From Deinococcales bacterium (GTDB taxonomy: Bacteria; Deinococcota; Deinococci; Deinococcales; JAAFIG01), in NCBI GenBank assembly GCA_043778225.1, contig JAYWGM010000015.1, forward strand, positions 32,001 to 96,000: 64,000 nt of DNA, given 5' to 3'. Each line of letters opens with the position of its first letter. Positions within the stretch are counted from its first letter, which is position 1. Below the pieces are notes generated by a model. That model worked only from the letters and a program-made list of their open reading frames with translations, was not told where the DNA came from and did not search any database. A program made the position numbers and the translations under genes. This document shows positions 2,828 to 32,089 of the stretch, piece after piece.

Positions 2828-2990
2828 AAGGTGAAAGGGGAAAAAGGGAAAAAGGGAAGAAGGAATGTGGTCCTAAACTTTTAACCTTTCTTGACCCCAA
2901 AGATGCACCTGTCTTGAACCAATACACGCACCTCACGGGCAGGTTCGCTTGTGGGCTGGGTTGCTTTTGACCCTTTAACCCTTTCACCTT
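2828..2990. repeat. Composite intergenic element with 12-bp terminal inverted repeats and an internal 38-bp hairpin unit
   Basis: AAGGTGAAAGGG (2828-2839) and CCCTTTCACCTT (2979-2990); 2912-2949 matches 49342-49379 at 33/38. Confidence 0.7.
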
Positions 2991-3916
2991 CATTTCCTTC
3001 TCCCAAACAAACCCGTCCGAGGTGGTGGCGGGACTTTAATCTCGAGGGTTGAGACTTCTGGTTTTGGTTGGTTTCTCAGTGCAGCGATTAAATTGGCGAG
3101 GGTTTCACGGTGTTGCCTTCTGTCTACCACCATGTCAATAAAACCTTTTTTCTCATAGAATTCTGAGCGTTGAAAACCATCGGGTAAACTCTGACGAACG
3201 GTTTGTTCAATCACGCGCTGACCTGCAAATCCAATTAGAGCATCGGGTTCACCAATAATTACATCGCCGATGGCAGCAAAACTGGCTGCCACACCGCCCG
3301 TGGTTGGGTCGGCAAGCACCGTGATGTACGGCAGCCCTTTAACGCTCAGTTGCTCGAGGGCAAAAGTGGTTTTTGCCATTTGCATCAGGCTTAACGCACC
3401 TTCCATCATCCGAGCGCCACCCGAAGCCGTGACCAAAATCATGCTGCGGTCTTCCTTGGTCGCCAGTTCTATGGCTCTGGTAATTTCCTCGCCTTCGCTG
3501 CTGCCCATGCTGCCGCCAGCAAATTCAAAATCCATGACACAAATCACAATAGGCAAACCCGCCAAGCTGCCACGCCCAGCGTAAATTGCTGATTCACGAC
3601 CCGTTTTCTTACGCGCCCGCTCGAGTTTTGCGACATAAGTATCGGTATCCACAAATTCAAGTGGGTCTTTGGCTTTGATTTTTCCACTGGTGACTTGGAA
3701 CGTACCCGCATCCAGCAGCCCTTCAACGCGGCGCTTGACTGGAATTCGGTGATGGTAGCCACACTTTGGGCAAACCCGCAAATTCTGCTCGAGTTCTTTG
3801 TTGTAGACCTGAGCGTTGCACTTTGGACATTTACCCCACAAATCGGGCAAATCATCATTAACCGTATTTTCTTTTAGTTGCGGAGGTCGCCGCCGAAAAA
3901 AACGCTCGAGGGTCAT
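2990..3916 (-). CDS. accD: Acetyl-CoA carboxylase carboxyltransferase beta
   Basis: C4 zinc finger CPKC..CPKC, GGSMG, SGGARMMEG, PTTGGV. Confidence 0.97.
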   Translation of the reverse strand: MTLERFFRRRPPQLKENTVNDDLPDLWGKCPKCNAQVYNKELEQNLRVCPKCGYHHRIPVKRRVEGLLDAGTFQVTSGKIKAKDPLEFVDTDTYVAKLERARKKTGRESAIYAGRGSLAGLPIVICVMDFEFAGGSMGSSEGEEITRAIELATKEDRSMILVTASGGARMMEGALSLMQMAKTTFALEQLSVKGLPYITVLADPTTGGVAASFAAIGDVIIGEPDALIGFAGQRVIEQTVRQSLPDGFQRSEFYEKKGFIDMVVDRRQHRETLANLIAALRNQPKPEVSTLEIKVPPPPRTGLFGRRK

Positions 3917-21633: not shown

Positions 21634-21709
<76 letters not shown>

Positions 21710-21829: not shown

Positions 21830-23419
21830 ATGGAAACTACAGACAGGCAGTTTGAAAGTATCCTCTGGGCAGCCGCCGATAAATTACGCGGTCATATGGA
21901 TGCAGCCGAATACAAGCACGTTGTTCTCGGCTTGATATTCCTGAAATACATTTCGGATGCCTTTACAGGTCAATATGAAAAAATTAAACAAGAATTTGGC
22001 ATACAAGCAGCCGAAGATCGAGACGAATACGCAGCCGAAGGTATTTTTTGGGTTCCGCCCAAAGCTAGATGGGTTTACTTACAAGAAAATGCCAAAGACC
22101 CCAAAATAGGCGCACTGATAGACCAAGCAATGGAATTACTCGAGACCGAAAACCCAAAGCAATTAAAAGGAGTTCTGCCCAAGGATTTTGGACGACCTAC
22201 ACTAGACAAAACCAAACTAGGCGAACTGATAGACCAATTCAGCAACCTAAAAATGGCAGCCACAGAAAACAATACCAACACAGACCCCACAAAGAAAAAC
22301 TCGAGCAGCAAAGATATGCTCGGGCGAGTCTACGAATACTTCCTATCCAAATTTGCCAGTGCCGAAGGTAAACTCGGTGGGGAATTCTACACACCCACCA
22401 GCGTAGTACGGGTCATTGTCGAAATGCTCGCACCATACAAAGGACGCATCTACGACCCTGCCTGCGGCTCAGGTGGAATGTTTGTCAATAGCGAAAAATT
22501 CGTCGAAGCCCACGGTGGAAAAATAGGCGATGTCAGCATCTACGGACAAGAAAGCAACCCCACAACATGGAAACTCGCCAAAATGAACCTTGCCATTCGC
22601 GGACTAGAAGCCAACCTAGGCACACAAAACGCCGATACCTTCCACAACAACCAGCACCCAGACTTACGCGCCGATTACATCCTTGCTAATCCACCCTTTA
22701 ATATCTCCGATTGGGGCGGCGAAAACCTACGCCAAGACCAACGCTGGCAACACGGCACACCACCCAGCAGCAACGCCAATTACGCATGGATGCAGCACAT
22801 GATTTACCACCTTGCACCAAATGGCATTGCAGGATTTGTCCTTGCCAACGGTTCACTCAGCAGCAACTCGAGCGGTGAAGGCGACATTCGCCAAAAAATA
22901 ATCGAAGCTGACTTTGTAGACTGCATTGTATCCCTACCCGGACAACTCTTTTACACCACACAAATACCAGTCGCTCTTTGGTTCTTAGCCCGCAACAAGA
23001 AAAACGGACGAGGACTCGAAGGACGCACCCTCCGCGACAGAAGCCACCACACCCTATTCATAGACGCACGAAAACTCGGATACATGGAAACTCGAGTCAA
23101 CCGCAATTTTACCGACACAGACATTGCCCAAATAGCCGATACCTACCACAACTGGCGCGGCGACGGACAACAACAATACACAGACCAAGCCGGATACTGC
23201 AAAAGTGCAAACCTTGAAGAAATCAAAACCCACGGGTATGTTCTAACCCCCGGACGATACGTTGGCATAGAAGCCCAAGTACCAGACAGCGAACCATTTG
23301 AGCAAAAAATGCAACGCCTCACCCAACAACTCCAGACCCAATTTGAACAAAGCACCATTCTCGAGCAACAAATCAAAAATAATCTGGAGAAACTAGGCTA
23401 TGCCCTACAACCCAAATAA
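21830..23419 (+). CDS. hsdM: Type I RM methyltransferase subunit
   Basis: [30 protein letters not shown]. Confidence 0.96.
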
Positions 23420-23501: not shown

Positions 23502-23548
23502 AACAAGTGATCAACAGCGAATTGATAATTTACCCTAAGGATTCTAAT

Positions 23549-24616
23549 ATGGCGCTTACACGCAAAAAAAACACAACTAAACCAGTAACTCAGGGTTTAC
23601 AAGGTTACGAAGTATTCATTAAAGAATTAAAACATTACATTCAACAAACCCAAGTGCGTGTCGCCATGACCGTTGGGCGCGAAGTATCCCAGCTTTACTG
23701 GCAAGTAGGTCAAAAATTTGTACTTGCCCAACAACAACATCAATGGGGCGATAAGATTTTAGAACAAGTTGCGGCTGATCTAAAAACAGCTTTTCCTGGG
23801 GTACAAGGTTTTTCAAAAGCCAATTTATACCGCATGAGAGCCTTTTTTTTAGCTTATCAAGATCAGAATTCAATTGTCGCACAAGCTGTGCGACAATTGC
23901 CTTGGGGTCATAATGTTGTTTTGTTACAAAAAATTAAAAATCCTAACGAACGGTTATGGTACGCACAGCAAATTCTCGAGTTTGGAATGAGTCGTTCAAT
24001 ACTAGAATTACAAATTCAAAATGGGCTATATCACCGGCAAGGTAAAGCCCTGACTAATTTTTCGACCACATTACCACCACTTCAATCTGATTTAGCGCAA
24101 CAAATTCTGAAAGACCCCTATAATTTCGATTTTTTAACCCTAGGTCAAGATGCCCATGAATTATCACTTGAACGAGGTTTACTCGAGCATCTGAAATTAT
24201 TTTTACTTGAACTTGGTGTTGGCTTTGCTTTCGTGGGAAGTCAATATCATCTCGAGGTGGGTGCAGAAGATTTTTATATTGACTTATTATTTTATCATTT
24301 GAAATTACGGGCTTTTATTGTGATTGAACTTAAAGCCCGAGAAGTAAAACCTGCCGATATAGCCCAAGTAATGGGTTACGTGGCTGTCGTGGATGAACAA
24401 TTGCGACATGAATCGGATGCGTCTACAATTGGTTTGGTTTTAGGTAAGGGCAAAAAATCGGTTATGGCAGAGTACGTTCTAAAAAATGTTAAAGCTCCGA
24501 TTGGAATTGCTGAGTATTTTACAGCCGAGACGTTACCAAATGACCTCGAGGCGGATTTGCCAAGTGTGGAGTTGCTTGAGGCGGAATTGGCTAAGTTGGG
24601 TGGTCTGGATGAATAA
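23549..24616 (+). CDS. DUF1016 / YhcG PD-(D/E)XK nuclease-family protein
   Basis: LYWQVG..WG, GFS..NL..MR, KDPYNFDFL, IDLLFYH, IELK. Confidence 0.92.
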   Translation: MALTRKKNTTKPVTQGLQGYEVFIKELKHYIQQTQVRVAMTVGREVSQLYWQVGQKFVLAQQQHQWGDKILEQVAADLKTAFPGVQGFSKANLYRMRAFFLAYQDQNSIVAQAVRQLPWGHNVVLLQKIKNPNERLWYAQQILEFGMSRSILELQIQNGLYHRQGKALTNFSTTLPPLQSDLAQQILKDPYNFDFLTLGQDAHELSLERGLLEHLKLFLLELGVGFAFVGSQYHLEVGAEDFYIDLLFYHLKLRAFIVIELKAREVKPADIAQVMGYVAVVDEQLRHESDASTIGLVLGKGKKSVMAEYVLKNVKAPIGIAEYFTAETLPNDLEADLPSVELLEAELAKLGGLDE

Positions 24617-24646: not shown

Positions 24647-25918
24647 ATGAACAATGTAACTGTATACCGTTTCTCTGATTTATTTGAGAAAATAGTTGAT
24701 AATCGAGGTAAGACAGTACCGACTGAAGATTCTGGGATGCCGCTAATCGCAACGAATTGTATTAAAAATGATTCGTTGTATCCTGTATACGAAAATGTCA
24801 GGTTTATTTCTGATGAGACGTATAAAACTTGGTTTCGTGGACATCCAGAACCTAATGATCTAATTTTTGTTTTGAAAGGCTCACCGGGGCGCGTATGTAT
24901 AGCCCCTGATCCAGTAGATTTTTGCATTGCACAGGATATGGTGGCTTTACGTCCTGACGATACGAAAGTTTATTGGAAATTTTTATTTGCTCTTTTAAGA
25001 TCATCAGAAATGCAGTCTAAGATTGGGAATATGCACGTTGGCACTTTAATTCCACATTTCAAAAAGGGTGATTTTGATAATTTGTATTTGTCTATTCCAG
25101 ATAGAAAAACTCAAGAATTTATTGGGGATTTATATTTTTTAATCTCGAGTAAAATCGAATTGAACCGTGCTACCAATGCTACGCTCGAGGCTTTGGCGCA
25201 AACCCTTTTCAAATCTTGGTTTGTGGATTTTGATATTGTGAAAGCCAAAGCGCTTGGTCTCGAGCCAAAGGGTGTGGATGCCAGTACAGCCGCATTATTT
25301 CCAAGTGCTTTTGTTAGCTCGAGCATGGGCGAAATTCCAGAAGGCTGGGAAATAAGAGGAATAGATAGTATTGCAGATTTTTTGAATGGTCTTGCGATGC
25401 AAAAATACCCTCCAAAAAGCAATTTGTCATTACCTGTTATTAAAATTGCCCAACTTCGTAAAGGTGATACTGTCGGCGCTGACCGAGCGAGTACAGAATT
25501 GCCAGAAGATTACATTATACAAGATGGAGACGTACTTTTTTCATGGTCGGGAAGTCTGGAAGTCGTGATGTGGACAGGTGGAATTGGCGCACTGAATCAG
25601 CATTTATTCAAAGTTACTTCTCAGGAATACCCAAAATGGTTTTATTACCTTTGGACGCTCGAGCATTTAGCGGAATTTAGACATATTGCCGAAAGTAAAG
25701 CAACGACAATGGGACATATCCAAAGAAAACATTTGAGCCAAGCTCGAGTGAATGTCCCGCCTCGAGAAATCCTTGATAAGCTCGGAGCAATTTTAGAACC
25801 GCTTGTTGAAAATATGTACTTAAATAACCTTGAATCTAAACGACTTACCACTACTCGAGATTCGTTGCTTCCTAAGTTGCTGTCTGGGGAAATTGAAGTT
25901 GGAGACATAATCATATGA
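24647..25918 (+). CDS. hsdS: Type I RM specificity subunit
   Basis: Two TRDs, central KIELN...LFKSWFVDF...IPEGW, terminal RDSLLPKLLSGEI. Confidence 0.95.
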   Translation: MNNVTVYRFSDLFEKIVDNRGKTVPTEDSGMPLIATNCIKNDSLYPVYENVRFISDETYKTWFRGHPEPNDLIFVLKGSPGRVCIAPDPVDFCIAQDMVALRPDDTKVYWKFLFALLRSSEMQSKIGNMHVGTLIPHFKKGDFDNLYLSIPDRKTQEFIGDLYFLISSKIELNRATNATLEALAQTLFKSWFVDFDIVKAKALGLEPKGVDASTAALFPSAFVSSSMGEIPEGWEIRGIDSIADFLNGLAMQKYPPKSNLSLPVIKIAQLRKGDTVGADRASTELPEDYIIQDGDVLFSWSGSLEVVMWTGGIGALNQHLFKVTSQEYPKWFYYLWTLEHLAEFRHIAESKATTMGHIQRKHLSQARVNVPPREILDKLGAILEPLVENMYLNNLESKRLTTTRDSLLPKLLSGEIEVGDIII

Positions 25919-26961
25919 AGTTTCTTCAGGCAGAATTTGAACAAGATTTACTCGCAGAGATTGATGATAGTGGAGCAATCCGTATTGGCGAATCTTTATT
26001 TAGTCCTGTTGATATTTTGAGTAGTGACCAAGAAGCGTATGAAAACGAACTGACACTGTGGCGATCAGAGGTGTGGTTGCCACCAAAACTCGAGAAATTA
26101 AAGAAAATTCTTGAACTTGAAAATAACCAGCATCGGTTTGCAGATTTACTCGAACTCTTATTACGGAACAAAGTTGTCCCATTTGTTGGTTCTGGTATGT
26201 CCGCTTCTTCAAGTATGCCAATGTGGACAAAGTTTTTATGGCAACTTCAAACACAATCTACTTTGGCTGCAACAGATCTACAGGCTATGATTGATGCTGG
26301 GAATTATGAAGATGCGGCTTCGGCACTGATTGCTAATATGCCCAATCCACTATTTAACGAAAAGTTAGAGCAGACATTTCGAGCAAGACAATTAGATAAT
26401 GTTGTAGGTGCGGTCAAGTACCTACCACGTATTTTTGCTTCAACTGTTGTAACTACAAATTATGACAACATTTTAGAATTGGTTTTTCAGGATTTGGAAA
26501 TTGAATTTGACGAAATTTTATTTGGGAAACGAATAGAAGACCACTCAGAGTTTCGTCGTAATGAACAACGTTGCTTATTGAAATTGCATGGCGATTTTAG
26601 AAGACCATCTACTCGAGTTTTAACTAAGCCTGAGTACGACTCATGTTATCAAGAGGGTAGTGCTTTCAAAGCAGAATTATCTCTTATTTATCAGGCAAAT
26701 TCATTGTTGTTTCTTGGCTGTAGTTTACAGAATGACCGAACAGTTTCTTTGTTGGCTGAGGTTGCATCAAGAGACCCAACTATGCCACGTCATTATGCTT
26801 TTTTGGCTTCACCAGACACCCCAGAAGATAGAATAAGACGTGAACATTTTTTAACAGACCGAAAAATTTTTCCTATCTGGTATCCTGTTTTAGAACATAA
26901 TCACGATGAACCAATCGAAGCGCTTTTAATCGGTTTAATGCAAGGTTTAGGGAAAATATGA
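25915..26961 (+). CDS. SIR2-like (SIR2_2) protein with acidic N-terminal extension
   Basis: [25 protein letters not shown] motifs. Confidence 0.88.
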
Positions 26962-29900
26962 GTCAAAATTTTAACGAAAATACTGTTGAACAAGCCACGC
27001 TCGAGTGGTTGCGTGGTCTTGGTTACGAGTACGAATTTGGTCCGAGTATTGCGCCAGAAGAAAAACGTGCCGAACGAGCTTCTTTTCGTGAGGTGTTGCT
27101 CCTCGAGCGTTTGCGGGTTGCTTTGCAGCGTTTGAATCCCACTGCTCCTCTAGCGGCACTCGAGGAGGCGGTACGGCGTGTTTCCACACCAGAATTTCCT
27201 GCGTTAATGCAGAACAATCGGGCGTTTCATAGGTTGCTTGCCGAGGGTGTCGAAACCGAGGTGCTGCAAGATGGTGTGTTGCGTGGTGTGCTGGTGCGTT
27301 TGGTGGATTGGGATAATGTGGATGCCAATAATTGGTTGGTGGTTAATCAATTAACGGTTGTGGATGGGCAGATTAACCGTCGTCCAGATGTTGTGGTGTA
27401 CTTGAATGGGTTGCCAATTGCGGTCATTGAACTTAAAAACGCGGCGGATAAGAAAGCCACCATCGAAAATGCGTATCAGCAGCTTAGGACGTATCAAAAT
27501 CAAATTAGTCGATTGTTTGTTTTTAATGCCTTGTTGGTTATTTCCGATGGTGTGCAGGCTCGGCTTGGTTGTGTTGGGGCAGAAATGGAGCGTTTCCAAC
27601 CGTGGAAAACTGTTTCTGGTACAGAATTACTGCCCGAATCTCTGGAGACGCTGATTAAAGGTGTCTTTGACCGTTCGCGTTTACTAGCGTTCCTGCGTGG
27701 TTTTATTGTTTTTGAGGATTTTGGCTCGAGTATTCAAAAGAAAATTGCGGCGTATCATCAGTTCTTCGCGGTGCAAAAAGCCTTGCAGAGTACCGTAGTG
27801 GCTTCAAGTGCGGCTGGCGATGGCAAAGGCGGTGTGGTCTGGCATACCCAAGGAAGCGGTAAGAGTTTAACAATGGTGTTCTTCGCGGGTGGCTTGGTGC
27901 AAAGTGCAGCGCTGGCAAATCCAACCATTGTTATTTTGACAGACCGTAACGATTTAGACGATCAGTTATTTGGGACATTCTCGAGGTGTAAGGATTTGTT
28001 GCGTCAAACGCCTGTACAAGCGGGTAATCGGGCGGATTTGCGGGGGTTACTCGAGCGTGAGGCGGGTGGGGTGGTTTTTACAACCATTCAAAAGTTCTTA
28101 CCCGAGGAACGCGGTGATAAATTCCCAAGGTTATCGGCGCGGCGTAATATCGTGGTTATTGCCGATGAAGCGCATCGCAGTCAGTATGGTTTTGAAGCCA
28201 AAGTGGATTTGCAAACAGGGGATTTGCGTTATGGTTTCGCGCAGAATGTACGCGATGCGCTACCAAACGCTACTTTTCTTGGTTTTACGGGTACGCCAGT
28301 CGAAAGTACCGATAAGAACACCCGAGGTATTTTTGGTGAGTACATTGATATTTACGATGTGCAACGGGCAGTGCAGGACGGCGCGACTGTGCCTATTTAT
28401 TATGAGTCTCGGTTAGCTAAACTCGATTTGCTCGAGTCGGAAAAACCGCGTTTAGATGATGATTTTGAAGAAGTAACCGAGGGCGAAGAAGCCTTTAGTA
28501 AGGAAAAACTGAAATCTAAATGGGCGCAACTCGAGGCGCTGATTGGTACGAAAAAGCGGCTTGAGCAAATTGCAGCCGATTTGGTGCAGCATTTTGAAGC
28601 ACGGCAAGATGTGTTGCTTGGTAAGGGCATGATTGTTTGTATGAGTCGCCGTATTTGTGTGGATTTGTACAATGAACTGATTAAATTGCGTCCGACTTGG
28701 TTTGGTGCGTCTGATACAGAAGGTGTGCTTAAAGTGGTGATGACAGGTGCGGCTTCTGACCCTGACGATTGGCAACCGCATATTCGTTCTAAAGCCAGAC
28801 AGCGTGATATTGCCGAGCATTTTCGGGATGATACTTCCAATCTTAAATTGGTCATTGTGCGTGATATGTGGCTGACAGGTTTTGATGTGCCGTGTTTGCA
28901 CACCATGTACTTGGATAAACCAATGCGTGGACATGGGTTAATGCAGGCGATAGCTCGAGTCAATCGGGTTTTTAGTAATAAGCCAGGTGGTTTGGTCGTG
29001 GATTACCTTGGTTTGGCGAATAATTTGCGTGAGGCATTGGTCACGTACACCAGTAGCGGTGGGCAGGGTGCGCCGACGCTTGACCAAGAAGCGGCTTTTG
29101 CAGTGATGCAGGAAAAACTTTCGATTTGCCGTGGTTTATTTCATGGTTTTGATTACTCGGATTTTATGACTGGTTCACCATCTGATCGGGTGGCGATTCT
29201 GCCCGAAGCTCAGGATTTTATTTTGGCTCAAGATCGCGTAAAAGGTAAGGAACGCCTGATTAAAGCCTCGCTTGAACTTGCCAAAGCCTTTGCGTTGTCT
29301 GTACCACTCGAGGAAGCATTGGCTTTGCGTCAAGAAATTGTGTTTTTTCAGACTGTCCGCGCTATTTTCGAGAAACGCGAAGGTACAACCAATCAAGCTG
29401 CCAGTTCAGATTTGCACGATGCGATTCAGCGTTTGGTTGAACGGGCAGTTGCGCCCGAAGGTGTGATTGATATTTTTGCGGCGGCAGGTTTGAAAAAACC
29501 TGACATCAGTATTTTATCGGATTCTTTTCTGGCAGATGTGCAAAATATGCCGCAACGTAATTTAGCCGTAGAACTGCTCGAGCGTTTAATGAAAGACGAA
29601 GTGAAAACAGGTTCTAAACGCAATTTGGTACAATCCAAGGCTTTTTCGCAAAAACTCGAGGCTGCCTTATTAAAGTATCAGAATCGGGCAATAGAAACAG
29701 CGCAAGTTATTGAAGAACTAATTGCCTTGGCTCGAGCTTACCGTGATGTGCAAAACCGAGGCGAAAGCATGGGGCTTGCCGAAGATGAAATTGCTTTCTA
29801 CGATGCTTTACAAGTCGGCGACCCTAGTCAAATCATGGCGGATGATGTGCTGCGGACTATTGCTTTAGAAGTAGCACAAACTGTGCGGAACAACACCACA

Positions 29901-30059
29901 ATTGACTGGGCGGTGCGTGAACAAGTCCAAGCAAATTTGCGGCGATTGGTTAAACGTGTATTGCGTAAATACGGCTATCCACCTGAGCAGCAAGAAGCAG
30001 CCACAAACACGGTTTTGGAACAAGCCAAATTACTGGCACAATTGAATCAGGAGACGTGA
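26958..30059 (+). CDS. hsdR: Type I RM restriction subunit
   Basis: RRPD..IELK nuclease motif, [25 protein letters not shown]. Confidence 0.96.
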
Positions 30060-30103: not shown

Positions 30104-32089
30104 ATGCCTTTGCAACTTTCGGTCTGCGATTACCCCGAACACCTCCCACCCGAAGAATGGGCGCAATTCCCTAAAAAAATGCGCCAACTGGGGCTAACTT
30201 TTGTGCGAATTGGCGAATTTGCATGGTCAAAGCTCGAGCCAAGCGCTGGGAATTACCAATTTGACTGGCTGGATATTGCCATCGAAGCCCTCCACGCTGA
30301 AGGGCTAAAAGTGGTACTCGGCACGCCAACCGCCACACCGCCAGCTTGGTTGGTGCGTCAATATCCGAGCATTTTGCCTGTAGATATTGAAGGGCGAACT
30401 CGAGAATTTGGCTCGAGACGGCATTATGATTTCTCGAACGATGTCTACTGGCAGCACTCAGCCCGAATTGTCGAGGTCTTGGCAAAACGCTATGGAAATC
30501 ATCCAGCCATGGCTGGCTGGCAAACCGATAACGAATATGGCTGCCATGATACGACCCGCTCGTATAGCCAACAAGCCAAAGAAAAATTTCAGGGCTGGCT
30601 CGAGCAAAAGTACGTCTCGCTCGAGGCGCTGAATACCGCTTGGGGAGCAGTTTTTTGGTCGCAGGAGTACACTGCTTGGGGACAGATTGGCTTGCCAAAT
30701 TTAACCGTTACCGAAGCCAACCCAAGCCATATTTTGGATTTTATGCGTTTCTCGAGTGACCGTGTAGCAAGCTACGACCGAATGCAGACCGAGATTATCC
30801 GCGCTCACAGCCCAAATCGTTTTGTGACCCACAATTATATGATCTTCTTTTCGGATTTTGACCATTACAAGGCTGCTGCACATCTGGATTTTGTGACTTG
30901 GGATAATTACCCGACGGGGATGCTCGAGTTTTTTGCGCCGCATGGTACATCTGAGGAAACCAAGAACAAATTTGCCCGAACTGGACATCCAGATTTGGTG
31001 GCACTTAACCACGATATTTACCGAGGCTTAAAGAATAAGCCGTTTTGGGTTATGGAGCAGCAATGCGGACAGGTCAATTGGTCGCCGTATAATCCGTTGC
31101 CCGCCCCCGGGGCAGTCCAGCTTTGGACACTCCAAGCCATGAGTCATGGGGCAAATGTGGTTTCGTATTTTCGTTGGCAGGCGGCTCGAGAAGCCCAAGA
31201 AGATTATCATTCGGGCTTGTTGCGTCACGATGGCTCAGAAGACCGTGGCTACGCTGAGGTCAAACGCCTTGCGCCGCACCTCGAGAAATTGTCCGATGAA
31301 TTAGCGCCATGCCGTGTTTGTATTTTGCACGATTACGAATCTTTGTGGGCTTACGATGTCCAAAAACACCATGCCGACAGTTCGTATTGGTCGCAGATGA
31401 TGATGTACTACACCGAACTGCGTCAAGTCGGTGTGGATGTGGATGTGCTGCACCCGATGTCAGATTTAAGCGCCTATGGTTTGATTATTGCTCCAGCCTT
31501 GATTATTGGTTCGCTCGAGTTAGCCAATCACCTCGAGCAGTACGCCCAAGCTGGCGCAACCGTGGTTTTTGGTACACGTACAGGGTTTCGTACTTCTACT
31601 GGCGCAGTCCCCAAAGAAAACCCAATGACCAAATTGGCTGGGGTTAAAGTCAAGAACTTCGATAGCCTGCGCCCCGGTTTACACTCGAGCATCGAAGCCT
31701 TTGACCAAAGTTTTGCCACCCACACTTGGAATGAATCGCTCGAGTTACTTGACCCAGACATCCGCGTTTTAGGCACATTTTTTGACGACCCACTGTACAG
31801 CCAAGCTGGCATCACTTACCGACCCATGAACACCGGCGGAATTATGTACATTGGCGTTTGGGGCGAGAAAATCGTTAAGCGCAGCCTCGAGTATGCGCTT
31901 TTTCGGGCTGGCATCAGCCATCAAGAACTCGAGCCGGGTTTGCGCCTGACACGGCGCGGCGGCTTGGTTTATGCCCAAAACTGGACTCGAGGTGGAATTT
32001 CTTTGCCCCTAGACCCAGACACCGAATTTGTCTATGGCGACAGCCTGATCGAGCCTTATGGCGTAACGGTCTACAAAGATAAGGAGTAA
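30104..32089 (+). CDS. GH42 beta-galactosidase
   Basis: [29 protein letters not shown]. Confidence 0.93.

Follow-up and report, generated by a model that had tools for sequence, protein, structure and literature searches.

Why would a gene for a SIR2 protein sit inside a Type I restriction-modification (RM) operon, between the genes for the specificity and restriction subunits? The question is raised by a 64,000-nucleotide (nt) window, positions 32,001 to 96,000 of contig JAYWGM010000015.1 from a Deinococcales bacterium (assembly GCA_043778225.1), in which a SIR2 protein of 348 amino acids is encoded in the order hsdS-SIR2-hsdR. Our analysis suggests that this protein, predicted from its sequence to destroy nicotinamide adenine dinucleotide (NAD+), is a good candidate for a backup that kills the cell when restriction comes under phage attack. 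The fuller reading, in which it is a PrrC/Ronin-like abortive-infection NADase tied by its N-terminal domain to a functioning Type I RM system, is one on which our own judgement is evenly balanced.

The linkage of the protein's relatives to hsd genes carries most of the argument. A protein search returned 396 matches at E ≤ 1e-10 among 5157 candidates, and most of the 120 listed were full-length relatives of 340–360 amino acids. A genome scan that was blind to neighbourhood covered the best 80 of 322 confirmed loci, and all 29 loci at a family score of at least 197 (L081–L108, L120) lay in hsd operons; one of the 51 lower-scoring loci had a distant N6-methyltransferase match nearby. The SIR2 gene directly followed hsdS in 28/28 loci with upstream DNA and preceded hsdR in 28/29, the remaining locus ending at a contig edge, and extra genes stood between SIR2 and hsdR in 7 of 28. 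These loci come from Bacteroidota, Acidobacteriota, Chloroflexota, cyanobacteria, several proteobacterial groups, Kuenenia and the archaeon Methanothrix. A metagenome scan (best 80 of 289 loci) agreed with the genome scan. It also revealed a second architecture, hsdR-hsdM-hsdS-SIR2, in which HsdR is EcoEI-like and no hsd flank lies downstream of SIR2, and a single HsdM-SIR2 fusion (L011:5976-8948) of 990 amino acids, in which HsdM and SIR2 are joined in frame behind an N-terminal extension and hsdR comes next. The HsdM proteins of the two RM families are only distantly alike (about 50 bits). Both PLSDB matches fell within operons annotated as Type I, and in one of them a hypothetical gene separates SIR2 from hsdS. 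One plasmid copy of the operon belongs to Ketogulonicigenium (WP_273692376-79). For the control passenger DUF4268, read with 1.5-kb flanks, hsd genes were neighbours in 2 of 21 loci.

A tree of 158 SIR2 domains (the window and 157 of 160 loci, three having been dropped for short or missing matches) placed the window's protein in one clade with 53 of 54 members hsd-adjacent, the exception being a 1.4-kb contig without flank. Two duplicate pairs reduce this clade to 52 unique sequences, and it covers hsdM-hsdS-SIR2-hsdR operons with a HindI-like HsdR, the second architecture and the HsdM-SIR2 fusion. Outside it, 1 of 104 was labelled hsd-adjacent, and its neighbour is really a ResIII-DUF3427 helicase; some Hsd queries behind these labels were drawn from the same loci, and those queries were checked by Pfam. 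The near-obligate linkage expected of an RM guard was found in 29/29 genome loci, 53/54 clade members and 2/2 plasmid records, and the enrichment of homologues in hsd operons, which the preliminary description of this DNA had named as a test of its proposal, held with hardly an exception. FastTree support for the clade split was 0.83. IQ-TREE on 57 sequences gave the main clade 96.7/87 on 20 sampled members and left the L015/L032/L034 group unplaced, and in a fast IQ-TREE run on randomly drawn sequences the RM-linked SIR2 proteins did not all fall into one clade. Across 21 loci, SIR2 distances followed those of HsdM (rho 0.81) and HsdR (rho 0.83), with a partial correlation of 0.58–0.65 for HsdM and about zero for the short HsdS conserved regions.

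Family members also vary in length. In L032:54-2075, L033:1218-3062 and L034:6585-8429 the SIR2 gene lies behind hsdS and encodes an additional C-terminal tail of ~250 amino acids, and Pfam found SIR2_2 alone in the two of these that were scanned. In L096:3083-3826 the protein is shortened to 247 amino acids within an otherwise complete hsd operon.

In the window, open reading frame (ORF) calls and Pfam place the operon entirely on the + strand, as a tRNA-Ala gene followed by hsdM-yhcG-hsdS-SIR2-hsdR:

21634..21709, + strand: tRNA-Ala(GGC), directly 5′ of the operon
21830..23419, + strand: hsdM, Type I methyltransferase of 529 amino acids (PF02384, PF12161), with NPPF and DPACGSGG in its sequence
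23507..24616, + strand: YhcG/DUF1016 PD-(D/E)xK gene (PADLOC PDC-S02), an interchangeable passenger
24647..25918, + strand: hsdS, specificity subunit of 423 amino acids (PF01420), its stop overlapping the SIR2 start in ATGA at 25915-25918
25915..26961, + strand: SIR2_2 protein of 348 amino acids (PF13289), member of the clade tied to Type I RM
25915..26079, + strand: N-terminal acidic domain of the SIR2 protein, residues 1-55, homologous to stand-alone phage proteins of PHROG 9294/37123/9396
26125..26958, + strand: ThsA/DSR2/KomC-type SIR2 domain, residues 71-348, with the N182-Y183-D184 codons from 26458 and H225 at 26587-26589
26958..30059, + strand: hsdR, 1033 amino acids, with a HindI-like C-terminus (PF11867); PF04313/PF18766/PF11867 and TIGR00348 over cut-off; its start overlaps the SIR2 stop in ATGA at 26958-26961

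The operon had been described as hsdS-SIR2-hsdR joined by two ATGA overlaps. The three genes and both overlaps are as described, although hsdM and the YhcG/DUF1016 gene had been left out. The overlaps are ordinary, as the hsdS-SIR2 gap in relatives runs from about −13 to +135 nt; tight junctions are usual among them, and we rejected the overlaps as special evidence.

What remains of the question is what the protein does and how it might be held to the RM system. It matched PF13289 at 98.3 bits (cut-off 24.5) and carries GSGMS, TTNYD, KLHG and FLGCSL, in agreement with the earlier claim of intact motifs. Its AlphaFold model, built from a 47-sequence alignment, has a predicted local distance difference test (pLDDT) score of 94, and the best Foldseek matches of the model were ThsA, KomC and DSR2 (E 1e-13, template modelling (TM) score 0.57–0.65). 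The pocket, N182-Y183-D184 with H225, is of the ThsA/DSR2 type, the equivalents given in the available text of PMC11263360 being N133-Y134-D135 with H171 in DSR2 and N112-Y113-D114 with H152 in ThsA. The pocket Asn, Asp and His, N182 and H225 among them, are invariant across the 47 aligned sequences, and in the top 120 homologues Asn-x-Asp is kept in 119 and the His motif in 118. Wild-type DSR2 and KomC outscore their own His mutants by 5–6 bits against the family profile, which puts H225 at the position of the catalytic His. With the SIR2_2 domain, the fold and the catalytic Asn and His all present, NAD+ hydrolysis is predicted. Zinc is bound in classical sirtuin deacylases by CxxC motifs, and two such motifs were present in 0 of the 120 homologues. 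FAM118B appears among the sequence matches. PADLOC, proposed earlier as a check, matched the SIR2 part alone (ThsA, LmuA) in 23/23 clade members and held no model specific to this family.

Since the protein ends with the SIR2 fold, it lacks a C-terminal sensor, and to this extent the earlier remark that it has no large sensor stands. It is not sensor-less, however: its N-terminal domain, which has homologues in phages, may do the coupling or sensing. In the AlphaFold model residues 1–55 are a separate small alpha/beta domain (helix, three short strands, helix, long helix) with a linker helix, and the domain is acidic across the family (21% Asp+Glu, 7% Lys+Arg). Thirty-five longer SIR2 relatives lack it and have mostly STAND/TPR-type Pfam domains, so the clade seems to have swapped a C-terminal sensor for the N-terminal domain and the RM link. 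The domain has no match in Pfam and none in the PDB by sequence or fold; a DNA mimic such as Ocr or ArdA is suggested at most by its acidic composition. The isolated model gave nothing at E ≤ 0.001 in BFVD by Foldseek (best E 0.23) and nothing at Z ≥ 5 among 48,161 PDB chains by VIA-align, results that are compatible with a fold relationship as well as with none.

A profile of 34 SIR2 N-termini retrieved 193 proteins at E ≤ 0.001 among 1.84 billion. Of 150 listed, 90 had a SIR2 part and many of the other 60 look like family fragments; from these 60 we selected by eye 22 small stand-alone acidic proteins. PHROG 9294, 37123 or 9396 (function unassigned) was matched by 23 of the 27 proteins scanned. 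The SIR2 N-termini aligned to the phage set in hhalign at 98.8% over 46 columns, although that set had itself been picked by means of the first profile. More independent support came from the SIR2 N-termini directly, with 2/34 matching each of PHROG 9294 and 37123 at E < 0.001, and from an ESM Atlas structure search with residues 1–70, which found three wholly viral clusters at TM 0.63–0.68. Single-protein scans of viral contigs gave no relatives, but DNA patterns did recover them, and on these contigs 61 of the 65 pattern-matched loci contained ORFs that the bacterial profile recognised, 63 in all (median 75 amino acids, 26% Asp+Glu, 6% Lys+Arg). In the reverse direction, a viral-only profile reached at least 10 bits on 26/38 close family N-termini, compared with 1/190 shuffles and 0/21 unrelated SIR2 N-termini, and scored the window's N-terminus at 11.2 bits. 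It was weak on the hsdR-hsdM-hsdS-SIR2 group and the HsdM-SIR2 fusion (medians 4.7 and 7.3 bits); none of ten members of that group reached 10 bits, and the domain there is degenerate while the hsd linkage is still present. The window's own genome holds no second copy of the phage domain, and nine Hsd proteins gave no match to it.

The phage homologues stand alone within clusters of small genes, and their carriers include Vequintavirinae (rV5 gp187), Providencia phage PS3 (Stuart_2, Stuart_5) and Microbacterium phages. The podophage PS3 has two paralogues among its first genes (L168:1683-1886 and 2931-3131), and the domain is repeated inside the single proteins P0209 and P0183. A word-index search, which is weak evidence, found no long proteins with the phage domain. 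In P0264 the domain precedes another domain of no identified type, and a bacterial ESM Atlas cluster (row 5) with Abi_C in 48% of its members matches it at TM 0.61. The N-terminal domain may serve other effectors too.

Under the preferred reading, the SIR2 protein would be made together with HsdS and HsdR, and its N-terminal domain would dock it on the Hsd complex, most likely on the HsdM/HsdS methyltransferase, and keep it latent. A phage protein that binds or disables the Hsd complex would free or rearrange the SIR2 protein, which would then hydrolyse NAD+ and stop the infected cell. There is precedent in PrrC and RonA, both kept latent by Hsd proteins (PMC12707154, bioRxiv 2023.04.06.535777 and PMC3506569, as far as their available texts go). 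A bolder version, which we offer tentatively and would not bet on, is that the bacterium took over a phage anti-defence module: the PHROG 9294/37123/9396 proteins would bind the Type I methyltransferase, the same domain would tether SIR2 there, and an incoming phage inhibitor would compete it off and set off NAD+ depletion. If true, the guard would be made from the domain by which the inhibitor itself binds, and a phage family that is widespread but lacks annotation would gain a function.

Several observations weigh against the preferred reading. SIR2-Hsd binding, NADase activity and phage protection are at present predictions. The pocket Tyr is found in just 10 of the top 120 homologues, with Leu in 68 and Phe in 40, and Y134A reduced DSR2 activity in the account given in PMC11263360. 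The congruence between SIR2 and Hsd distances supports a long association and is not proof of contact, as joint transfer can yield it. The HsdM-SIR2 fusion is known from one metagenome contig with no hsdS within its 13-kb locus, and there was no second HsdM fusion among 35 long matches. The Vequintavirinae, which carry the phage homologue, were exceptionally RM-sensitive in the BASEL tests, according to the text available of PMC8594841, and this tells against both versions. For the bolder version, Pfam found no ArdA, Ocr or other anti-defence family among 150 cluster representatives of 539 phage-gene neighbours, most of which had no Pfam family at all. The RM system also does not need SIR2, because the window's HsdR type occurs in 38 of 364 genomes of the phylum and an hsdR-adjacent family member only in two of those 38, the window's genome and G011. 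In two same-genus genomes (G130 and G132), whose HsdR is 95% identical, an NYN gene takes the place of SIR2. Finally, the "PrrC position" is weak evidence on its own, since the slot between hsdS and hsdR is a promiscuous cargo site. The proposal that the SIR2 protein guards the RM enzyme had been argued from this position; that argument is weak, and the proposal is partly supported, by the near-exclusive hsd linkage and the retained catalytic residues.

The gene before hsdR varied across the 30 loci examined, and Pfam assigned nine slot genes to NYN, Fic, Y1 transposase, DUF4357, AAA_13, DUF4268, DUF3800 and DUF4276, one being without a family. Such use of the slot by many unrelated genes raises the possibility that SIR2 is a passenger at a recombination hotspot, brought in by homologous exchange of the stretch from the conserved 3′ part of hsdS to the 5′ end of hsdR and not functionally coupled at all. 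Exchange of this kind would keep old passengers in the slot and make the passenger tree follow the RM tree. It is what G130 and G132 look like, as they share hsdM, the hsdS conserved regions and hsdR with the window and differ in the target recognition domains and cargo, and the SIR2 gene's guanine-cytosine content of 38% and 1.9 CTCGAG per kb, against 6.2 per kb in the genome, are consistent with recent arrival. We nevertheless give this explanation a low probability, given that other passengers, such as DUF4268, are not restricted to the slot, and the clade stands behind hsdS in two distant RM families, including at an operon end with no hsdR flank, and is once fused to HsdM. A self-contained sensor-effector, for which the RM operon provides expression and a ride, is unlikely in our view but deserves more weight. 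Its N-terminal domain would itself detect a phage factor, for instance by forming a pair with the homologous phage protein or by serving as a decoy for what that protein targets. This would suit a domain that phages encode as a protein of its own, at times doubled within one protein or present as two paralogues in a genome; KomC is an example of a bare SIR2 NADase whose trigger is separate, and the phage carriers are not RM-resistant. A self-contained system would, however, be expected outside hsd operons too, like DUF4268 and YhcG, which is hard to match with the 53/54 hsd-adjacent clade members or with linkage that remains where the domain is degenerate.

The linkage evidence would serve equally well if SIR2 were coupled to RM activity and not to its inhibition: carried on the enzyme, it would fire as HsdR loads onto unmethylated DNA or translocates along it, and so amplify restriction into abortive infection. 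Full-length HsdR in 20 of the relatives used for the trees indicates that the operon is not a Ronin-like decoy, and the available text of PMC3506569 notes that unmodified DNA can also activate PrrC. Suicide upon each successful restriction event would presumably be costly, and the domain common to the phage proteins would be left unexplained, and we rate this coupling as improbable, lower still than the passenger explanation. Lowest of all we place a non-lethal, NAD+-dependent modifier, an ADP-ribosyltransferase or deacylase whose role would be to adjust the RM enzyme or to mark DNA. Replacement of the pocket Tyr in most members and the presence of FAM118B among the matches speak for it, and ADP-ribosylation was suggested for RM-linked Sir2 by Makarova et al. 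2012 (PMC3506569). The best structure and sequence matches are instead the defence NADases ThsA, KomC and DSR2, and the paired CxxC motifs are absent from all 120 homologues.

Some features of the locus and its relatives stand apart from these readings. In a related RM system (L197, G150) an AAA_13 gene of at least 492 amino acids lies directly 5′ of hsdR, and we take it to be possibly RloC/PrrC-like. The genes around SIR2 in the window are hsdM, yhcG, hsdS and hsdR, plus a beta-galactosidase gene, and the YhcG/DUF1016 gene has three further copies on other contigs of the genome. No duplicated 3′ end of tRNA-Ala(GGC) was found elsewhere in the assembly, so there is no att-bounded island. Promoter and terminator counts were no more than chance level, and no RNA holder was listed. 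Codon skews are opposed within the one operon, with 75% A+C at third positions in hsdM and 64% G+T in hsdR. The palindrome CTCGAG has 24,877 copies in the whole genome (G000) and occurs throughout the window, and GGCGCC (3), GACGTC (1), TGCGCA (11) and CTGCAG (13) are nearly missing from the genome, a pattern that looks like a highly iterated palindrome together with strong restriction-site avoidance.

The idea of a restriction-coupled Sir2 is not new, as Makarova et al. already proposed it. Their 2012 paper (PMC3506569) noted that Sir2 domains with toxin-like roles occur in many RM loci of Types I and III and that immunity components may inhibit them, and in 2013 (PMC3632139) they again proposed the Sir2 proteins of Type I RM loci as coupled toxins. 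The 2012 account is a general prediction, and its available text names no family, obligate clade, N-terminal domain or phage homologue. In the literature searched, which was available in part, we found no description of the clade, its near-obligate linkage or the phage-related domain, though the 3,231 embedded families of Payne et al. 2024 may include the clade; the available portions of PMC11514479, PMC12753305 and PMC11232893 contain nothing on the family or the phage domain. Few RM guards have been characterised (PrrC, Ronin, PARIS, EcoR22I), and none of these is described as using NAD+ depletion in the texts at hand. The clade is a small, testable case, spread over many phyla, for the 2012 hypothesis that immunity and suicide are coupled. 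The common domain links it to unannotated small acidic phage proteins, including one of the laboratory phage rV5, and could explain defence and phage genes together.

Among known systems, the protein resembles ThsA, DSR2, KomC and Lamassu LmuA in its SIR2 NADase fold and N-Y-D...H pocket. Unlike those systems, its operon has no STALD/SLOG domain, DSR2 C-terminal sensor or HAM1/TIR/HerA/LmuB partner. Membership in Thoeris as ThsA was rejected, as the match stops at profile position 230 of 478 and PF13289 alone is found; so were DSR1/DSR2 (348 amino acids, no large C-terminal sensor), Avs5 (14 bits against a cut-off of 1000) and Lamassu, SIR2-HerA and Kongming, whose partner genes (LmuB ABC ATPase, HerA, HAM1) are not in the operon. 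In Ronin (bioRxiv 10.1101/2023.04.06.535777, from the text available), RonA is a 61 amino acid membrane toxin and the decoy is without hsdR, whereas the SIR2 operon has a full-length HsdR and an enzymatic effector; a Ronin-type decoy was rejected because hsdR is full length in the window and lies downstream in 28/29 genome loci. The protein is not a PrrC either, as Pfam, PADLOC and NCBIfam gave no ABC ATPase or HEPN match: PrrC joins an ABC-ATPase to a HEPN tRNase, and the SIR2 protein joins SIR2 to a phage-related acidic domain, which has a core of ~46 residues in common with the PHROG 9294/37123/9396 proteins, both being acidic. The likeness is in setting. PrrC of EcoprrI, a Type IC RM system, is embedded in the hsdMSR locus and found almost only there, and Payne et al. 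2024 labelled it almost exclusively embedded in Type I RM, a pattern that the SIR2 clade shares. The parallel we propose for the SIR2 protein is that it, too, may be a latent effector released by RM inhibition.

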